Shown: piece by piece, positions 3,220-18,280 of the stretch
Position numbering within the stretch: the first letter of the stretch is position 1
How the letters are laid out: each line of letters opens with the position of its first letter
Translations under genes and position numbers: made by a program
Notes under the pieces: generated by a model
Database searches by the model: none
What the model was told of the DNA's origin: nothing
What the model saw: only the letters and a program-made list of their open reading frames with translations
IMG/VR virus record: IMGVR_UViG_3300025276_000032
Coordinates: 3,348 to 67,347 of that record
Length of the DNA stretch: 64,000 nucleotides
Reading direction: 5' to 3' (one strand)
From: a virus

Positions 3220-3386
3220 GATTTTTCTTCAAGGTTTCGCTTTTCACTATAAAACTTTTGTTGGTATTCCGACGCATAGCCCGCTTGATCTTCTGGGCTT
3301 GGCGACCATTAATCTTGCCCTCGTCATTATACCCAATTTCTCTCAGAGATTTAATCATTTTCTTTCCTTTAGTGTGTTGATTTTAC

Positions 3387-9014: not shown

Positions 9015-9090
9015 TGGTGCGAGAGGTAGGATTTGAACCTACGATCAACCCGTTATGAGCGGGGGGCTTTAACCACTAAGCTACTCTCGC
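9015..9090 (-). tRNA. tRNA with CAU anticodon (probably Ile2; Met possible)
   Basis: 76-nt cloverleaf GCGAGAG/CTCTCGC-ACCA, loop CTCATAA; CCGCTCATAACGG arm resembles alphaproteobacterial tRNA-Ile2. Confidence 0.9.
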
Positions 9091-9449: not shown

Positions 9450-9526
9450 TGGTGGACCCTACAGGACTCGAACCTGTAACCTACAGCTTAGAAGGCTGTT
9501 GCTCTATCCAGTTGAGCCAAGGGACC
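9450..9526 (-). tRNA. tRNA-Arg(UCU)
   Basis: 77-nt cloverleaf, loop CTTCTAA, GGTTCGAGTCC T-arm, encoded CCA. Confidence 0.93.
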
Positions 9527-13841: not shown

Positions 13842-14484
13842 AGCTATGTTTAGCTAAACATCCTTGCTTTCTCTGAATTGTTGTAAAAGTATCTTTTGCA
13901 ATTGCAGCATAAGGATACATTTCATTTAAAAAGTCAAATCTATCATTATGAATGAACACGTCCGTAGGACTAGCATCAATTTTTGCCCGATCAATTAAAG
14001 CTTTTGCTGCTGAACCGTTTAGCATATATGCGTGTGCGCCGGGTAGATATTGTTTAGAGACTAATTTGTTTACGCCTAGCTTTTTCGGCGTATGAAATTT
14101 GCCGTATGATGGTGCGCCGATAGAACATAACATAGGAACAGTACGTGAGTGCATTTTTGGCATGACACCAAGTTCACTTGTAATAACTGCATCGTGTTCA
14201 AATATTAAATATGCATCGTCATTTTCTTTTGCACACTCTTCCCAAAGCCTATGATGTGAAAGAAATGCAGACATGCAACGCTCAGGTCTAGAATAAACTT
14301 CAGTGAAACCTGCTGCTGGAATCCCTCTATCTTTTAACATTTTTTTAGGATCATCTTCTGGAATTGTAGCTTTCCACATTTCAACTCCTTCAATGCCATA
14401 ATCGGCAGCAGACATAATGCATCTACTAGCTGAACGGACAGACTTAGGAAAAGTTTCAATTGTTATCACATATGCTTTTATCAT
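13816..14484 (-). CDS. GT25-family glycosyltransferase
   Basis: AFLSHHRLW, IFEHDA, GAHAYML. Confidence 0.8.
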   Translation of the reverse strand: MIKAYVITIETFPKSVRSASRCIMSAADYGIEGVEMWKATIPEDDPKKMLKDRGIPAAGFTEVYSRPERCMSAFLSHHRLWEECAKENDDAYLIFEHDAVITSELGVMPKMHSRTVPMLCSIGAPSYGKFHTPKKLGVNKLVSKQYLPGAHAYMLNGSAAKALIDRAKIDASPTDVFIHNDRFDFLNEMYPYAAIAKDTFTTIQRKQGCLAKHSYGEKYEIL

Positions 14485-15287
14485 AGATTTCTTATCCTAT
14501 TGTTTGCCCTAATAACACTACTTAAAATGCAAGGTTCAAGGTTATTCGCCTGAAATGTTGCTTGTAATGCTTTCGTGTCTTTGGGAAAACACGCTCCACC
14601 AAATCCTCTATCACCGTCTGGTCCTGGCACCTGCATGTGAGATTTGCTGATACGATCATCTAGTCCTGCAAGGCTTGCAATTTCGTCATAATCCATATCG
14701 TTTCTTTCTTGACACAAATCGTAAATTTCATTGAAAAATGCAACTTTAACAGCGAGAAAAGAATTTCGTACATATTTAGTCATAATCAACTCAGGAATTG
14801 AAGAATAGATGGGCGTAAATTCTTTACACTTTGTAAATACATCAACCCAAAATTTGTCTGCCGGGGCTGATCCAAATACAAGTGTGTCCAGAGTGTTAGA
14901 ACCAAATAGTATCGTATCTTGATTTTTGAAATCTTCTACTGCATTTGCCGCTGTCAAAAATTCGGGACTAAATGTAATTTCTAGATGTGGATACATTTTA
15001 TCAATGTATTCCCAGCCCTCAAGGCTAATGGTACTTTTAATCAGTACTCTTGCTGAACCACCTTTGTTTTTAGAAATTTGCTCAAGCATTTCGTTTATAA
15101 CACTCATATCACATGAACCATCAACGCTCGAAGGCGTTGGTAGGCAAATGATATAGCCGTCGCTGATTTCGTTTTTCACTTCATTTGAAGTATATGCGGG
15201 ATCAACTATCGAAATGTCATAATGATCTTCCAACAGCGCATGTACAGCTTTACCAACAAATCCATAACCAAGTAATGTCAATTTCAT
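14481..15287 (-). CDS. ugd: UDP-glucose/GDP-mannose dehydrogenase family protein (no C-terminal domain)
   Basis: GYGFVG, CLPTP, IKST, SPEFL, GFGGACFPKD. Confidence 0.85.
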   Translation of the reverse strand: MKLTLLGYGFVGKAVHALLEDHYDISIVDPAYTSNEVKNEISDGYIICLPTPSSVDGSCDMSVINEMLEQISKNKGGSARVLIKSTISLEGWEYIDKMYPHLEITFSPEFLTAANAVEDFKNQDTILFGSNTLDTLVFGSAPADKFWVDVFTKCKEFTPIYSSIPELIMTKYVRNSFLAVKVAFFNEIYDLCQERNDMDYDEIASLAGLDDRISKSHMQVPGPDGDRGFGGACFPKDTKALQATFQANNLEPCILSSVIRANNRIRNL

Positions 15288-16160: not shown

Positions 16161-16182
16161 AATAATATCTCCATTTTATATT

Positions 16183-16289
16183 TGGCTCTGAGGGCAGGAA
16201 TCGAACCTGCACGAATAAATATACATTTACGTTAGTATATATTCACGGTATAAACAGTACCGCGCGTCTACCAATTCCGCCACCTCAGA
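16183..16289 (-). tRNA. Non-canonical 107-nt tRNA with GUU (Asn) anticodon and 35-nt variable region
   Basis: TCTGAGG/CCTCAGA-G-CCA; D arm GCGGAATTGGTAGACGC; CGGTA-CTGTTTA-TACCG; T arm GCAGG-TTCGATT-CCTGC. Confidence 0.85.
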
Positions 16290-16295
16290 TAACTT

Positions 16296-17114
16296 TTATA
16301 GTTTATCTAAGGCTGCAATCATTCGTGTCATCCCGATGCCGCCGCCACTTCTAGGGAAAAATTCAAATTCTAAGAATTTCTCAAGTTCATCCTCAACCCT
16401 TTGATCTCCGAATAAACTCTTAATCAAACCAGCGTATTCACCATTAGAGATTGTATGGAAGGTATCTCTCATTTGATCTTTATCAGTACTGCGTTCAGCA
16501 CTACCAATTGTTTCCATGCCACCCAGAATAACATCAATCTTTCTGCTAGTACCATCCTCATTTCTAGACATATTCCAAAAAGGGCTTGTCATTTCTGGAA
16601 ATTCTGTAATCATACAAGAGCCAAACGATGATTGCATGGCTAATTCGTGTTGTGCGTCTAGTTCTGTAGATGCACTAGCCCCATAGTGTTGTTGCCATTC
16701 TCTATAAGTTTTTTCTGTGGGCTTGTCAAAACCCAGATGTTTGCATAGCTCATATTCCATTTCTTTCAGATCATCAATACTGCCGGGCATTTCAAATTCA
16801 AACATAGGAAAAATCGTATCATGTCTGCCTGGGATTGCATTTGGTTCTTGACGATATGAGGTCGAGACACAAAAAAAGCCCTTTGAAGTAGGGCTTGTAA
16901 GTAATTCATGTTCTAGCCACATTTGACCTGTTTGAGGCAATGGCCACGTCTGATTTTCATATTGATAAGTTGCTACATTTTCGGGGTCTTCACATGCAGC
17001 TAAAATACTTAATCTATTTTGAGTATGTACTTCCTCAAAGCCTTTATTTAAAAAAAAGTCCCTAAGGAGGGACACTGCATTAGTAAATTTTTTAGGATCA
17101 ATTAGTTGAGTCAT
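16296..17114 (-). CDS. Class IIb (Asn/Asp/Lys) aminoacyl-tRNA-synthetase-like protein, catalytic domain only
   Basis: Motif 1 GFEEVHT, motif 2 YRQE...RHDTIFPMFEFE, motif 3 GGGIGMTR; 272 aa, no room for an N-terminal OB-fold. Confidence 0.85.
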   Translation of the reverse strand: MTQLIDPKKFTNAVSLLRDFFLNKGFEEVHTQNRLSILAACEDPENVATYQYENQTWPLPQTGQMWLEHELLTSPTSKGFFCVSTSYRQEPNAIPGRHDTIFPMFEFEMPGSIDDLKEMEYELCKHLGFDKPTEKTYREWQQHYGASASTELDAQHELAMQSSFGSCMITEFPEMTSPFWNMSRNEDGTSRKIDVILGGMETIGSAERSTDKDQMRDTFHTISNGEYAGLIKSLFGDQRVEDELEKFLEFEFFPRSGGGIGMTRMIAALDKL

Positions 17115-17221: not shown

Positions 17222-18280
17222 TTAATCTGGGAATCGAGCAGTGATTCCTTCGACATAATAGCTCATACTATTCAATTCGCCGTCCGTAGCTACTTTTCCA
17301 GCTGCAATACGAACTTCACCCGCTTGATCTTTGATTGGTCCAGTGAAAGCAAAATATTCACCATCACGAATCTGGTGCATAATATCAGTTGCAATAACAC
17401 GAACTTCATCTGGCATATTTGTGAATGGTGCCATCGCAACAACACCATCATTCATATGACCAAAATAGTCCTCACTCTCCCAATTACCATCAATTACAGC
17501 CTGTACTTTACGAATATAGTAAGGTGCCCAGTTATCAATAGTAGCAGTTAGCTGCGATTTAGGTGCAACAGCAATTTGATCTGATGCTTGACCAAAGCCG
17601 TGTTTACCTTGTTGTTCTGCAGCTTGGAGTGGCGCAGGAGAATCTGTATGTTGTGCTATCATATCGCAACCTTGGGACATGAGGGCTTTAGCAGCATCCG
17701 ATTCTTTACCAGGATTGAACCAAGTATTTACCCATACAATATCCATATCTACATCAGGATTCATACTACGAGCACCCATAAAGAATGTATTAATTTCACG
17801 GATAACTTCTGGAATTGGGAACGCTCCAATATAACAAATCTTGTTCGATTTAGTCATTAAACCAGCAATCACGCCCTGAACGTGTCTAGCTTGGTATAGA
17901 CGCAATCCATAGCTTGACATATTTGCAGCCTGCTTATACCCAGTGGCATGCTCAAACTTAACATTTGGATAACGATTAGCCATCTTCAATGTCGCGTCCA
18001 TATATCCAAATGATGTTGTGAAGATAATATCTGCACCTCTTAGTACCATACCATTAATTACACGCTCTGCATCAGGACCCTCTTTAACACTTTCGACAAA
18101 AAATGTTTCGACTTGATCACCAAAATGTGCTTCTACATCTTGTCTGCCAATGTCGTGACGATATGTCCATCCGCCATCACCAGTCGGTCCGACATATACG
18201 AACCCCACTTTAACTTTATCCCCAGCCCATGCGCTTGTCGCTAACATAGCCGCTGCTACGATTGTTAAAAGTTTTTTCAT
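17222..18280 (-). CDS. BMP-family ABC substrate-binding protein (purine/nucleoside-type)
   Basis: Signal peptide; GFVYVGP..DGGWTY.H, TTSFGYM, FEHATGYK, PIPEVIR, QHTDS. Confidence 0.9.
   Translation of the reverse strand: MKKLLTIVAAAMLATSAWAGDKVKVGFVYVGPTGDGGWTYRHDIGRQDVEAHFGDQVETFFVESVKEGPDAERVINGMVLRGADIIFTTSFGYMDATLKMANRYPNVKFEHATGYKQAANMSSYGLRLYQARHVQGVIAGLMTKSNKICYIGAFPIPEVIREINTFFMGARSMNPDVDMDIVWVNTWFNPGKESDAAKALMSQGCDMIAQHTDSPAPLQAAEQQGKHGFGQASDQIAVAPKSQLTATIDNWAPYYIRKVQAVIDGNWESEDYFGHMNDGVVAMAPFTNMPDEVRVIATDIMHQIRDGEYFAFTGPIKDQAGEVRIAAGKVATDGELNSMSYYVEGITARFPD

Follow-up and report, generated by a model that had tools for sequence, protein, structure and literature searches.

A class II tRNA(GUU) beside an AsnRS-like enzyme in marine T4-like phages: a candidate enzyme-plus-tRNA system

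What purpose is served by a phage tRNA that bears an asparagine anticodon and breaks together, under strong selection, two textbook regularities, a purine at position 37 and the short variable arm of tRNA-Asn? The question is raised by a tRNA(GUU) encoded in record IMGVR_UViG_3300025276_000032, in the stretch of 64,000 nt from record positions 3,348 to 67,347 that was analysed here as a whole and is called the window. Its gene lies 6 nt downstream of, and on the same strand as, a gene that the initial annotation of the locus overlooked, encoding a protein similar to the catalytic core of asparaginyl-tRNA synthetase (AsnRS). The two probably form an uncharacterised enzyme-plus-tRNA system and not a decaying or ordinary tRNA. 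We tentatively read the tRNA as a private, asparagine-carrying partner RNA of a nucleotide-synthesis enzyme built on an AsnRS-like core. As a class, the system is that of a synthetase paralogue with a dedicated tRNA, and there is a real chance that this tRNA serves a pyrimidine enzyme.

The pair has been listed before. Both genes are annotated in GenBank in the Prochlorococcus phages P-SSM2 and P-SSM7, which carry the pair under the labels "tRNA ligase" and "tRNA-Asn", without functional study, and the enzyme corresponds to cyanophage gene cluster T4-GC194, a table entry annotated "tRNA ligase" in PMC3037559. A literature search found no paper analysing the pair, the odd tRNA or the function of the enzyme, although subscription journals and supplements may hold more.

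The rules by which such a tRNA can be read come from published work. Bacterial asparagine identity consists of the anticodon and the discriminator G73, the U1-A72 pair is the determinant for GatCAB, and N6-threonylcarbamoyladenosine at position 37 (t6A37) acts as an antideterminant against AspRS on yeast tRNA-Asn, while G73 blocks LeuRS and TyrRS and C2-G71 blocks SerRS (PMC9976931). Loss of t6A in S. pneumoniae is lethal unless asnS gains a mutation in its hinge (PMC12632869). Phage tRNAs are often grouped with genes that are mobile or flexible (PMC3037559), and those with anticodon-loop changes have been proposed to evade anticodon nucleases (PMC10264068). One such nuclease, AriB of the PARIS system, cuts E. 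coli tRNA-Asn(GUU), its targets sharing U36-A37-A38-U39, and tRNA variants of phage T5 rescue infection under PARIS (PMC12409363).

Structure, identity and conservation of the tRNA

The window tRNA matches Rfam family RF00005 with 46.9 bits, the gathering score being 29 (E 7.1e-07 over the entire window), in an alignment that covers model positions 1-71 of 71, and this full-length match, together with the sequence, confirms the first description of a tRNA(GUU) with U37 in the loop CUGUUUA. That loop of 7 nt, with U33 followed by G34 U35 U36 and then U37, is closed by the anticodon stem CGGUA/UACCG; every pair of the acceptor stem (7 bp), the anticodon stem (5 bp) and the T stem (5 bp) is Watson-Crick, as had been claimed, the D stem has 3 bp, the D loop is standard (G18 G19) and the T loop reads UUCGAAU. 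For the variable region RNAfold returns the fold originally described, 10 bp interrupted by a bulge of 2 nt and ending in a loop of 10 nt. ARAGORN, run on the window, made no call for the tRNA at 16186-16289, and it misfolds long-arm relatives as "tRNA-Asp atc".

With respect to identity the molecule is a composite. By the rules for bacterial tRNA-Asn (PMC9976931) it has the required GUU and G73 as well as the U1-A72 pair, but its body is not the class I one with a variable loop of 4-5 nt, position 37 is not the A37 at which t6A is made, and the phage tRNAs as a family differ further by a class II body with a hairpin of 13-41 nt, a 3-bp D stem, mostly U37, and a constant place beside a truncated synthetase paralogue. 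Bacterial tRNA-Leu is matched in the D arm, in the bases that flank the variable arm and in C2-G71 (present in 42/52 aligned sequences), but the phage molecules differ from it by G73 in place of A73, by U1-A72, by the anticodon GUU and by an arm of up to 41 nt. A covariance model of the family, R1, when run on five bacterial genomes, likewise gave tRNA-Leu as its best match at all six loci examined. Taken by E. coli rules, G73 and C2-G71 on a class II body imply that LeuRS, TyrRS and SerRS should not accept this tRNA (PMC9976931). A pyrimidine at position 37 means that t6A37 cannot be made there, and, because hinge mutations in asnS are what rescues t6A loss, a U37 tRNA-Asn would be expected to be a poor substrate for canonical AsnRS (PMC12632869); having no t6A37, it is arguably not tuned for efficient decoding of AAY codons.

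Such departures from rule might be signs of decay, which the initial annotation had argued against from the perfect stems of the single copy, and the homologues bear it out. Random decay of the stems was looked for in 55 homologues (52 distinct) and the stems proved to be maintained: across the 52, 99.9% of stem cells are paired, against 81.6% in shuffled alignments and 39-64% with slid partners, both sides have changed in compensation at 14 of 20 stem pairs, and the covariation score was matched by none of 500 shuffles. Judged from this sequence record, the element is a genuine phage tRNA under selection, and presumably a functional one.

A wider tally, in which 212 sources were pooled into 99 distinct tRNAs on 172 loci, shows what is held constant and what is free to vary. 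All 99 of these main-clade molecules have G73 and U1-A72, 98 have the anticodon GUU and the remaining one GUC, and the genes of 78 include the CCA. At position 37 there are 80 with U, 15 with A (in the loop CUGUUAA), four with C and none with G, and the base switches among near relatives with the same arm (U in L015 and A in L018; U in L043 and A in L021; C in L028 and A in L032). U37 is found also in distant lineages, namely P-SSM2, P-SSM7, a lineage of three records represented by L097, whose tRNA reads GUC, and a second tRNA clade (L375, L400-L405) with A1-U72 in place of U1-A72. The 85-nt L097 tRNA is not detected by Rfam at the gathering threshold and is detected by ARAGORN and R1.

The variable region ranges from 13 to 41 nt among the 99, always as a hairpin, and its pairs 1-5 are formed in 95-100% of them, each by as many as six pair types. 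One DNA contig (run X6) of a near-identical phage has an extra TA in the AT-repeat of the arm, at window position 16235, so that arm length varies within populations. All 57 arms of at least 28 nt contain TATTTA. On the opposite strand, the window's plus strand, this reads TAAATA (16216-16221, inside AATAAATA at 16214-16221), in an orientation antisense to all nearby genes. A T4 late promoter antisense to the arm was considered and rejected: the opposite strand reads NATAAATA, the core of T4-type late promoters, in just 19 of the 57 long arms, the invariant part being TAAATA. The motif could instead serve in recognition at the level of RNA.

The AsnRS-like enzyme, its linkage to the tRNA and its relatives

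The protein encoded next to the tRNA matches PF00152 (58.5 bits, gathering 25; 7.7e-16) and the function-unknown family phrog_29758 (5.5e-131). It carries motif 2 (YRxE..RH) and motif 3 (GGGIGxxR), has no anticodon-binding domain and aligns to the catalytic domain alone of AsnRS, for example residues 140-382 of 2xti. The top Foldseek matches of its AlphaFold (AF2) model (pLDDT 96.6) are AsnRS (1x54, 2xgt, 9sh8, 8tc8), with AspRS and LysRS near behind and a best match of E 5.8e-18 and query-normalised TM 0.78; a family profile searched against PDB ranks AsnRS (1.8e-15) before archaeal AspRS (3e-13), AS-AR 3p8t (2.3e-6) and EpmA (3e-6). Aligned with AsnRS, AspRS and LysRS that were extracted from genomes and labelled by NCBIfam, the pocket signature QTGQMWLE resembles the QSGQLxGE of AsnRS and not the QSPQxFKQ of AspRS, whose lysine is absent, and is Asx-type and not of the LysRS type ELYLKR; motif 2 ends E-x-E as in AsnRS and not D-x-E. 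The meaning given to these residues is the one known from AsnRS and AspRS. In both fold and pocket signature the enzyme resembles AsnRS.

The enzyme nevertheless falls outside the named families, scoring 23 bits against the AsnRS equivalogs TIGR00457 and NF003037 (cut-offs 342.6 and 414), 18.4 bits against NF005055 for asparagine synthetase A/AS-AR (cut-off 389) and 17.7 bits against TIGR00462 for EpmA/GenX (cut-off 286.9). In a maximum-likelihood tree, from a quick search only, the family forms a separate deep clade on a long branch with support of 100, not nested in AsnRS, and a search of the ESM Atlas matched only the family's own viral clusters. Compared with characterised AsnRS (P. horikoshii 1x54, Brugia 2xgt/2xti, T. 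thermophilus 9sh8, human 8tc8), the phage enzyme shares the fold, motifs 2 and 3 and the pocket, but differs by having neither the N-terminal anticodon-binding domain nor the hinge, by its separate position in the tree and by having relatives fused to PyrD or PyrF. AS-AR (3p8t), AsnA and EpmA/GenX (3g1z, 3a5z) are, like the phage enzyme, class IIb cores alone and apply adenylate chemistry to uses other than standard tRNA charging; none among them is known to keep a private tRNA, and AS-AR and EpmA resemble the phage enzyme only weakly, with E of 2e-6 to 5e-6 where AsnRS reaches 1.8e-15. An identity as asparagine synthetase was considered and set aside, its similarity to AsnA/AS-AR being weak and the genomes that carry relatives mostly having AsnB or AsnA already.

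The association of the two genes was followed from either side. When a protein search with the enzyme, for which the viral collection held at least 598 matching stretches, was used to draw 80 close viral loci, the tRNA stood directly downstream of the enzyme gene in 75 (74 found by BLAST and one cut by a contig end) and was missing in five. In two of these five (L007, L008) the enzyme gene is directly followed by the 2-oxoglutarate-dependent oxygenase gene that comes after the tRNA in the window, as expected of clean tRNA deletions. A scan of the same collection with a pattern derived from the tRNA returned 120 loci, 106 of them true family tRNAs and 14 not tRNA; six of the 106 lay at contig ends and could not be evaluated for an upstream gene, and in the other 100 without exception the enzyme gene ends 26-134 nt upstream of the pattern, while other neighbours of the pair vary between genomes. 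With distance from the window enzyme the tRNA becomes rare, being present at one of 15 loci of distant relatives (L084-L098), five of 28 found with protein P0123 and three of 10 metagenome loci, and in bacteria and giant-virus contigs the enzyme occurs without an adjacent tRNA. The linkage is one-sided, in that the tRNA never occurs without the enzyme and the enzyme persists without the tRNA. The two genes are probably co-transcribed.

Two further loci deserve separate mention. At L104, a 61%-identical relative, the place of the tRNA is taken by an apparent acceptor-stem-only remnant (5' strand, one base, 3' strand, G and CCA), some 40-65 nt beyond position 2819, where the match stops; it could be a deletion scar or a minihelix. 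At L131, a 45%-identical relative in a GC-rich bacterial metagenome-assembled genome (MAG), an ordinary 73-nt tRNA-Asn (L131:3033-3105; loop CUGUUAA, U1-A72, G73) follows about 250 nt downstream, after a terminator-like hairpin.

Relatives that live without the tRNA are embedded in pyrimidine and nucleotide contexts. Among the 33 loci that a MAG search with the window enzyme returned, a group 53-57% identical to it is truly chromosomal in bacteria, has the same pocket and lacks an adjacent tRNA. The gene adjoins pyrD in Aureispira and Chitinophagales and pyrF in a Myxococcota MAG, and in Weeksellaceae its neighbours are pckA on one side and gldB/gldC on the other; L107, L109 and L124 have pyrD or pyrF next to it, and two proteins are outright fusions, of PyrD with the core (P0123) and of the core with PyrF (P0141). 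Nucleotide-metabolism genes also adjoin seven of 12 tRNA-less viral loci, many of them from giant-virus MAGs: PyrD at L384, a fused orotate phosphoribosyltransferase-orotidine monophosphate decarboxylase at L393 and L409, both ribonucleotide reductase subunits at L385 and L404, dihydrofolate reductase at L398 and thioredoxin at L395.

Five bacterial carriers of the enzyme (G001-G005) all have separate full-length class IIb synthetases, read as including a complete AsnRS in each, NCBIfam confirming AspRS and LysRS for examples from G001 and G005 and AsnRS for G001; AsnB is present in four of them and AsnA in two. In none of the five was pyrB (TIGR00670) found, against 14 of 14 controls, and none has a pyrC_multi match that reaches the cut-off; all five have pyrD. 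In a Weeksellaceae sample of 61 genomes pyrB was above cut-off in neither of the two carriers (G001, G099) and in 48 of the 59 non-carriers. Overall pyrB was found in none of six carrier genomes, a count to be read with the facts that these are MAGs, that four of the six are related and that 11 of the 59 non-carriers likewise have no pyrB above cut-off. In one carrier, of the Absconditabacterales (G004, contig C1), the short paralogue, the class IIb synthetases and PyrD all contain in-frame TGA codons, consistent with TGA being read as sense in that lineage.

What the pair may do

Reading the tRNA as the private, asparagine-bearing partner of a nucleotide-synthesis enzyme is the account that we lean towards, with some reserve. 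The tRNA would be loaded with asparagine by virtue of its conserved marks (G34 U35 U36, G73 and, in the main clade, U1-A72), whether by the partner enzyme acting at the acceptor end, by host AsnRS, or by an AspRS of the non-discriminating kind (ND-AspRS) plus GatCAB, the indirect route that marine picocyanobacteria may use, and its class II, tRNA-Leu-type body would set it apart from host tRNA-Asn. The enzyme, with its Asn/Asp-type pocket, is predicted to use adenylate chemistry in nucleotide, specifically early pyrimidine, synthesis, and the tRNA would be a dedicated aminoacyl carrier or handle that feeds or controls it, decoding being at most secondary. The initial annotation had listed a non-ribosomal carrier among its explanations, and as the leading reading this idea still stands, on a different basis: the AsnRS-like neighbour and the link with nucleotide synthesis, neither of which had then been seen.

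Several observations pull in the other direction. Pyrimidine synthesis is not known to involve a tRNA, the enzymes of cells and giant viruses do without a private one, and the phage molecule retains a decoder's complete parts (D loop, T loop, U33, CCA). In P-SSM7 it stands beside ordinary phage tRNAs, the window's ORFs use AAT as their fourth commonest codon, and the window pair's own neighbours are mostly genes of sugar modification and not of the pyrimidine pathway. The A1-U72 of the second clade means that the GatCAB argument is not general, and the deep-clade position of the family would leave the substrate of the enzyme unfixed by phylogeny.

Some of these same points would fit a private translation pair, in which a mini-AsnRS blind to the anticodon, guided by G73, the 1-72 pair and the long arm and needing neither host AsnRS nor t6A37, charges no tRNA but its own class II tRNA(GUU), for AAY codons. 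This we consider possible and somewhat doubtful. It agrees with the enzyme-tRNA linkage, with the AsnRS-like pocket and intact motifs 2 and 3, with the near-invariant anticodon on a standard cloverleaf with CCA, and with the ordinary tRNA neighbours in P-SSM7 and the use of AAT; the dependence of canonical AsnRS on t6A37 would moreover supply a rationale for an enzyme dedicated to a U37 tRNA (PMC12632869). Precedents exist in PylRS with tRNA-Pyl and in SerRS with the long arm of tRNA-Ser, dedicated pairs in which recognition is blind to the anticodon, and the phage enzyme would likewise read the acceptor end or the body; the phage tRNA differs in having a sense and nonetheless invariant anticodon, and the enzyme in having metabolic relatives. 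The carrier reading is preferred here because the enzyme survives without the tRNA (as after its deletion in L007 and L008) and the tRNA is never without the enzyme, because relatives 53-57% identical and with the same pocket, tied to pyrimidine genes and without such a tRNA, occur in genomes that have AsnRS, and because the L097 lineage keeps the pocket of the window enzyme although its tRNA reads GUC, so that an enzyme charging asparagine would there mistranslate Asp codons. A pyrimidine at position 37 would, in addition, be unusual for the decoder of a codon that starts with A.

A more specific form of the carrier reading, which we think unlikely as it stands, is tRNA-dependent nucleotide synthesis. 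Host AsnRS, or AspRS/ND-AspRS plus GatCAB, would build asparagine on the private, decoding-poor tRNA(GUU), and the enzyme would take over the aminoacyl group from the acceptor end of this tRNA, for instance by running the transfer step in reverse to enzyme-bound Asn-AMP, and pass it toward dihydroorotate, bypassing PyrB and PyrC; for the relatives that have no tRNA, in bacteria and giant viruses, the substrate would be Asn or Asp in free form.

Slightly less probable again is an ordinary codon-supplementing tRNA-Asn, charged by the host, with a merely physical link to its neighbour through shared transcription or a mobile cassette. Its identity marks for Asn are all in place, the pair shifts from one genome context to another, and phage tRNAs often lie near mobile or flexible genes (PMC3037559). 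Against this, the enzyme gene lies within tens of bases in 100 of 100 evaluable cases while other neighbours change, and the class II body and pyrimidine-37 are kept across the pair-bearing lineages examined, with enzymes about 49-70% identical to that of the window, a conservation not expected of a casual passenger.

An anticodon-nuclease-resistant tRNA, also suggested at the outset, is possible on the evidence of position 37, since U37 turns the AriB-target motif UAAU into UUAU (PMC12409363). In the full counter-defence version, a rather improbable one in our estimate, U37 and the altered body would make a replacement tRNA-Asn that host anticodon-loop nucleases cannot cut, and the mini-synthetase would offset poor recognition of the t6A-less tRNA by host AsnRS. 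AriB does cleave tRNA-Asn(GUU) (PMC12409363), and loop-changed phage tRNAs have been proposed as nuclease evaders (PMC10264068). The phage tRNA-Asn(GUU) departs in its anticodon stem-loop from the cleaved motif as do the T5 tRNA-Lys, tRNA-Thr and tRNA-Asn set against AriB (PMC12409363), but these are ordinary class I tRNAs with no partner enzyme. A37, with the loop CUGUUAA, recurs in 15 of the 99 family tRNAs, and the pyrimidine context and the tRNA-less enzymes would be left unexplained. To our knowledge no nuclease of marine hosts fits this role.

That the variable region is an excisable, intron-like insert, leaving a normal short tRNA-Asn as the mature product, was another early suggestion and is very improbable. 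In its favour are the unusual 35 nt and the failure of ARAGORN on long-arm forms; opposed to it are an arm whose length is continuous from 13 to 41 nt, the shortest still 13 nt, and whose basal helix is conserved and covaries in the manner of class II tRNAs, a size too small for a self-splicing intron and the lack of an Rfam intron match. Contigs from public sequencing runs (Logan contigs, which do not show ends, level or strand, and whose RNA libraries may hold DNA) agree: none in four runs joins across 16211-16245, which as a contig-only result is weak, and the RNA-library contig X20 spans 16181-16290 with the arm intact and a relative's flanks. Least credible of all, to the point of being negligible, is a decaying tRNA pseudogene, which the non-canonical position 37 and the ARAGORN miss might suggest and which the covariation already refutes: across hundreds of phages the stems pair almost perfectly and compensatory changes are numerous.

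Genomic setting and significance

The features of the window that bear on the pair are collected in Table 1. Directly upstream of the enzyme is a gene for a lipoprotein of the Bmp/PnrA family, which we take to bind nucleosides and which would then be a nucleotide-related neighbour. Promoter and terminator scans around the pair gave background levels. A second RNA-library contig, X15, equals 16827-17040 of the enzyme gene with no mismatch; like X20, it offers only hints of transcription or processing, not proof, and parts without contig coverage carry no meaning. The window's ORFs have 5.8% Asn codons. The spacer of 360 nt between its two ordinary tRNAs is GC-richer, with a sole ORF of 72 aa and no Rfam match.

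Table 1. Coordinates of the tRNA, its parts, the partner enzyme and neighbouring features in the window
Feature	Position in window	Strand	Evidence or remark
tRNA(GUU), 104 nt	16186-16289	minus	Rfam 46.9 bits; own covariance model R1 98.3 bits; covariation
Body of class II, tRNA-Leu-like; U1-A72, G73 as discriminator	16186-16289	minus	sequence, family alignment
3' CCA, genomically encoded	16183-16185	minus	sequence
Anticodon loop CUGUUUA	16251-16257	minus	GUU at 16253-16255, U37 at 16252
Variable region, 35 nt, hairpin	16211-16245	minus	RNAfold; includes the UAUUUA motif of all long-arm relatives
AsnRS-like class IIb catalytic core, 272 aa	16296-17114	minus	PF00152, phrog_29758, fold; stop codon 6 nt before tRNA
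Bmp/PnrA-like substrate-binding lipoprotein	17222-18280	minus	PF02608 1.3e-47; directly upstream of enzyme
Short UDP-glucose dehydrogenase-like gene	14481-15287	minus	without the family's C-terminal domain
Ordinary tRNA, anticodon CAU (Met, possibly Ile2)	9015-9090	minus	
Ordinary tRNA, Arg-UCU	9450-9526	minus	

Beyond the window, a protein search found the enzyme in the Prochlorococcus phages P-SSM2, P-SSM5 and P-SSM7, and a megablast of window positions 14-19 kb against isolated phages gave no match. The ordinary tRNAs near the pair in P-SSM7 are Ile-UAU, Arg-UCU and Leu-UAA, for AT-rich codons. The last of these, annotated Leu (UAA), has 73 nt and no long arm and lies three genes before the pair (L081:3871-3943), so that in this phage the tRNA with the Leu anticodon is short-bodied and the one with the Asn anticodon has the Leu-type long body.

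Six MAG loci, 64-87% identical to the window enzyme, also carry the tRNA (L099-L103, L106), and the T4 gp23 major capsid gene occurs in the genomes behind two of them, L102 and L100 (G007). For L102 it lies on the same 335-kb contig, G006:C57, which marks that contig as a binned phage. Its first 20,000 nt (L132, G006:C57:1-20000), binned in a Marinimicrobia MAG, hold around the pair phosphoenolpyruvate carboxykinase, a class I/II aminotransferase, an alternative oxidase, a full pstSCAB operon, phosphoribosyl pyrophosphate synthetase and an HNH endonuclease, as well as a UDP-glucose dehydrogenase-like gene (L132:18011-18799) that is short like the window's, with 262-268 aa across the two copies. 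The contig has the look of a jumbo marine phage in which one region is unusually metabolic.

The window phage itself was found in marine metagenomes of many studies, by way of public runs, and at least 8000 candidate clusters at 90% identity, all that were scored, matched the enzyme. The enzyme-tRNA pair thus belongs to the abundant flexible genes of ocean T4-like phages, and its tRNA offers a concrete case for the role of position 37 and t6A in the recognition of tRNA-Asn. Should the pair serve translation, it would represent a natural anticodon-blind synthetase with an orthogonal sense-codon tRNA, useful for genetic-code engineering. Should the tRNA be a carrier, it would have been recruited as cofactor by a previously unknown enzyme of the pyrimidine pathway, a candidate that occurs in bacteria for which no aspartate carbamoyltransferase was detected, and also in giant viruses; and if the synthesis is in fact tRNA-dependent, this would be the first tRNA to act as a substrate carrier for pyrimidine synthesis, together with a new early pyrimidine enzyme.

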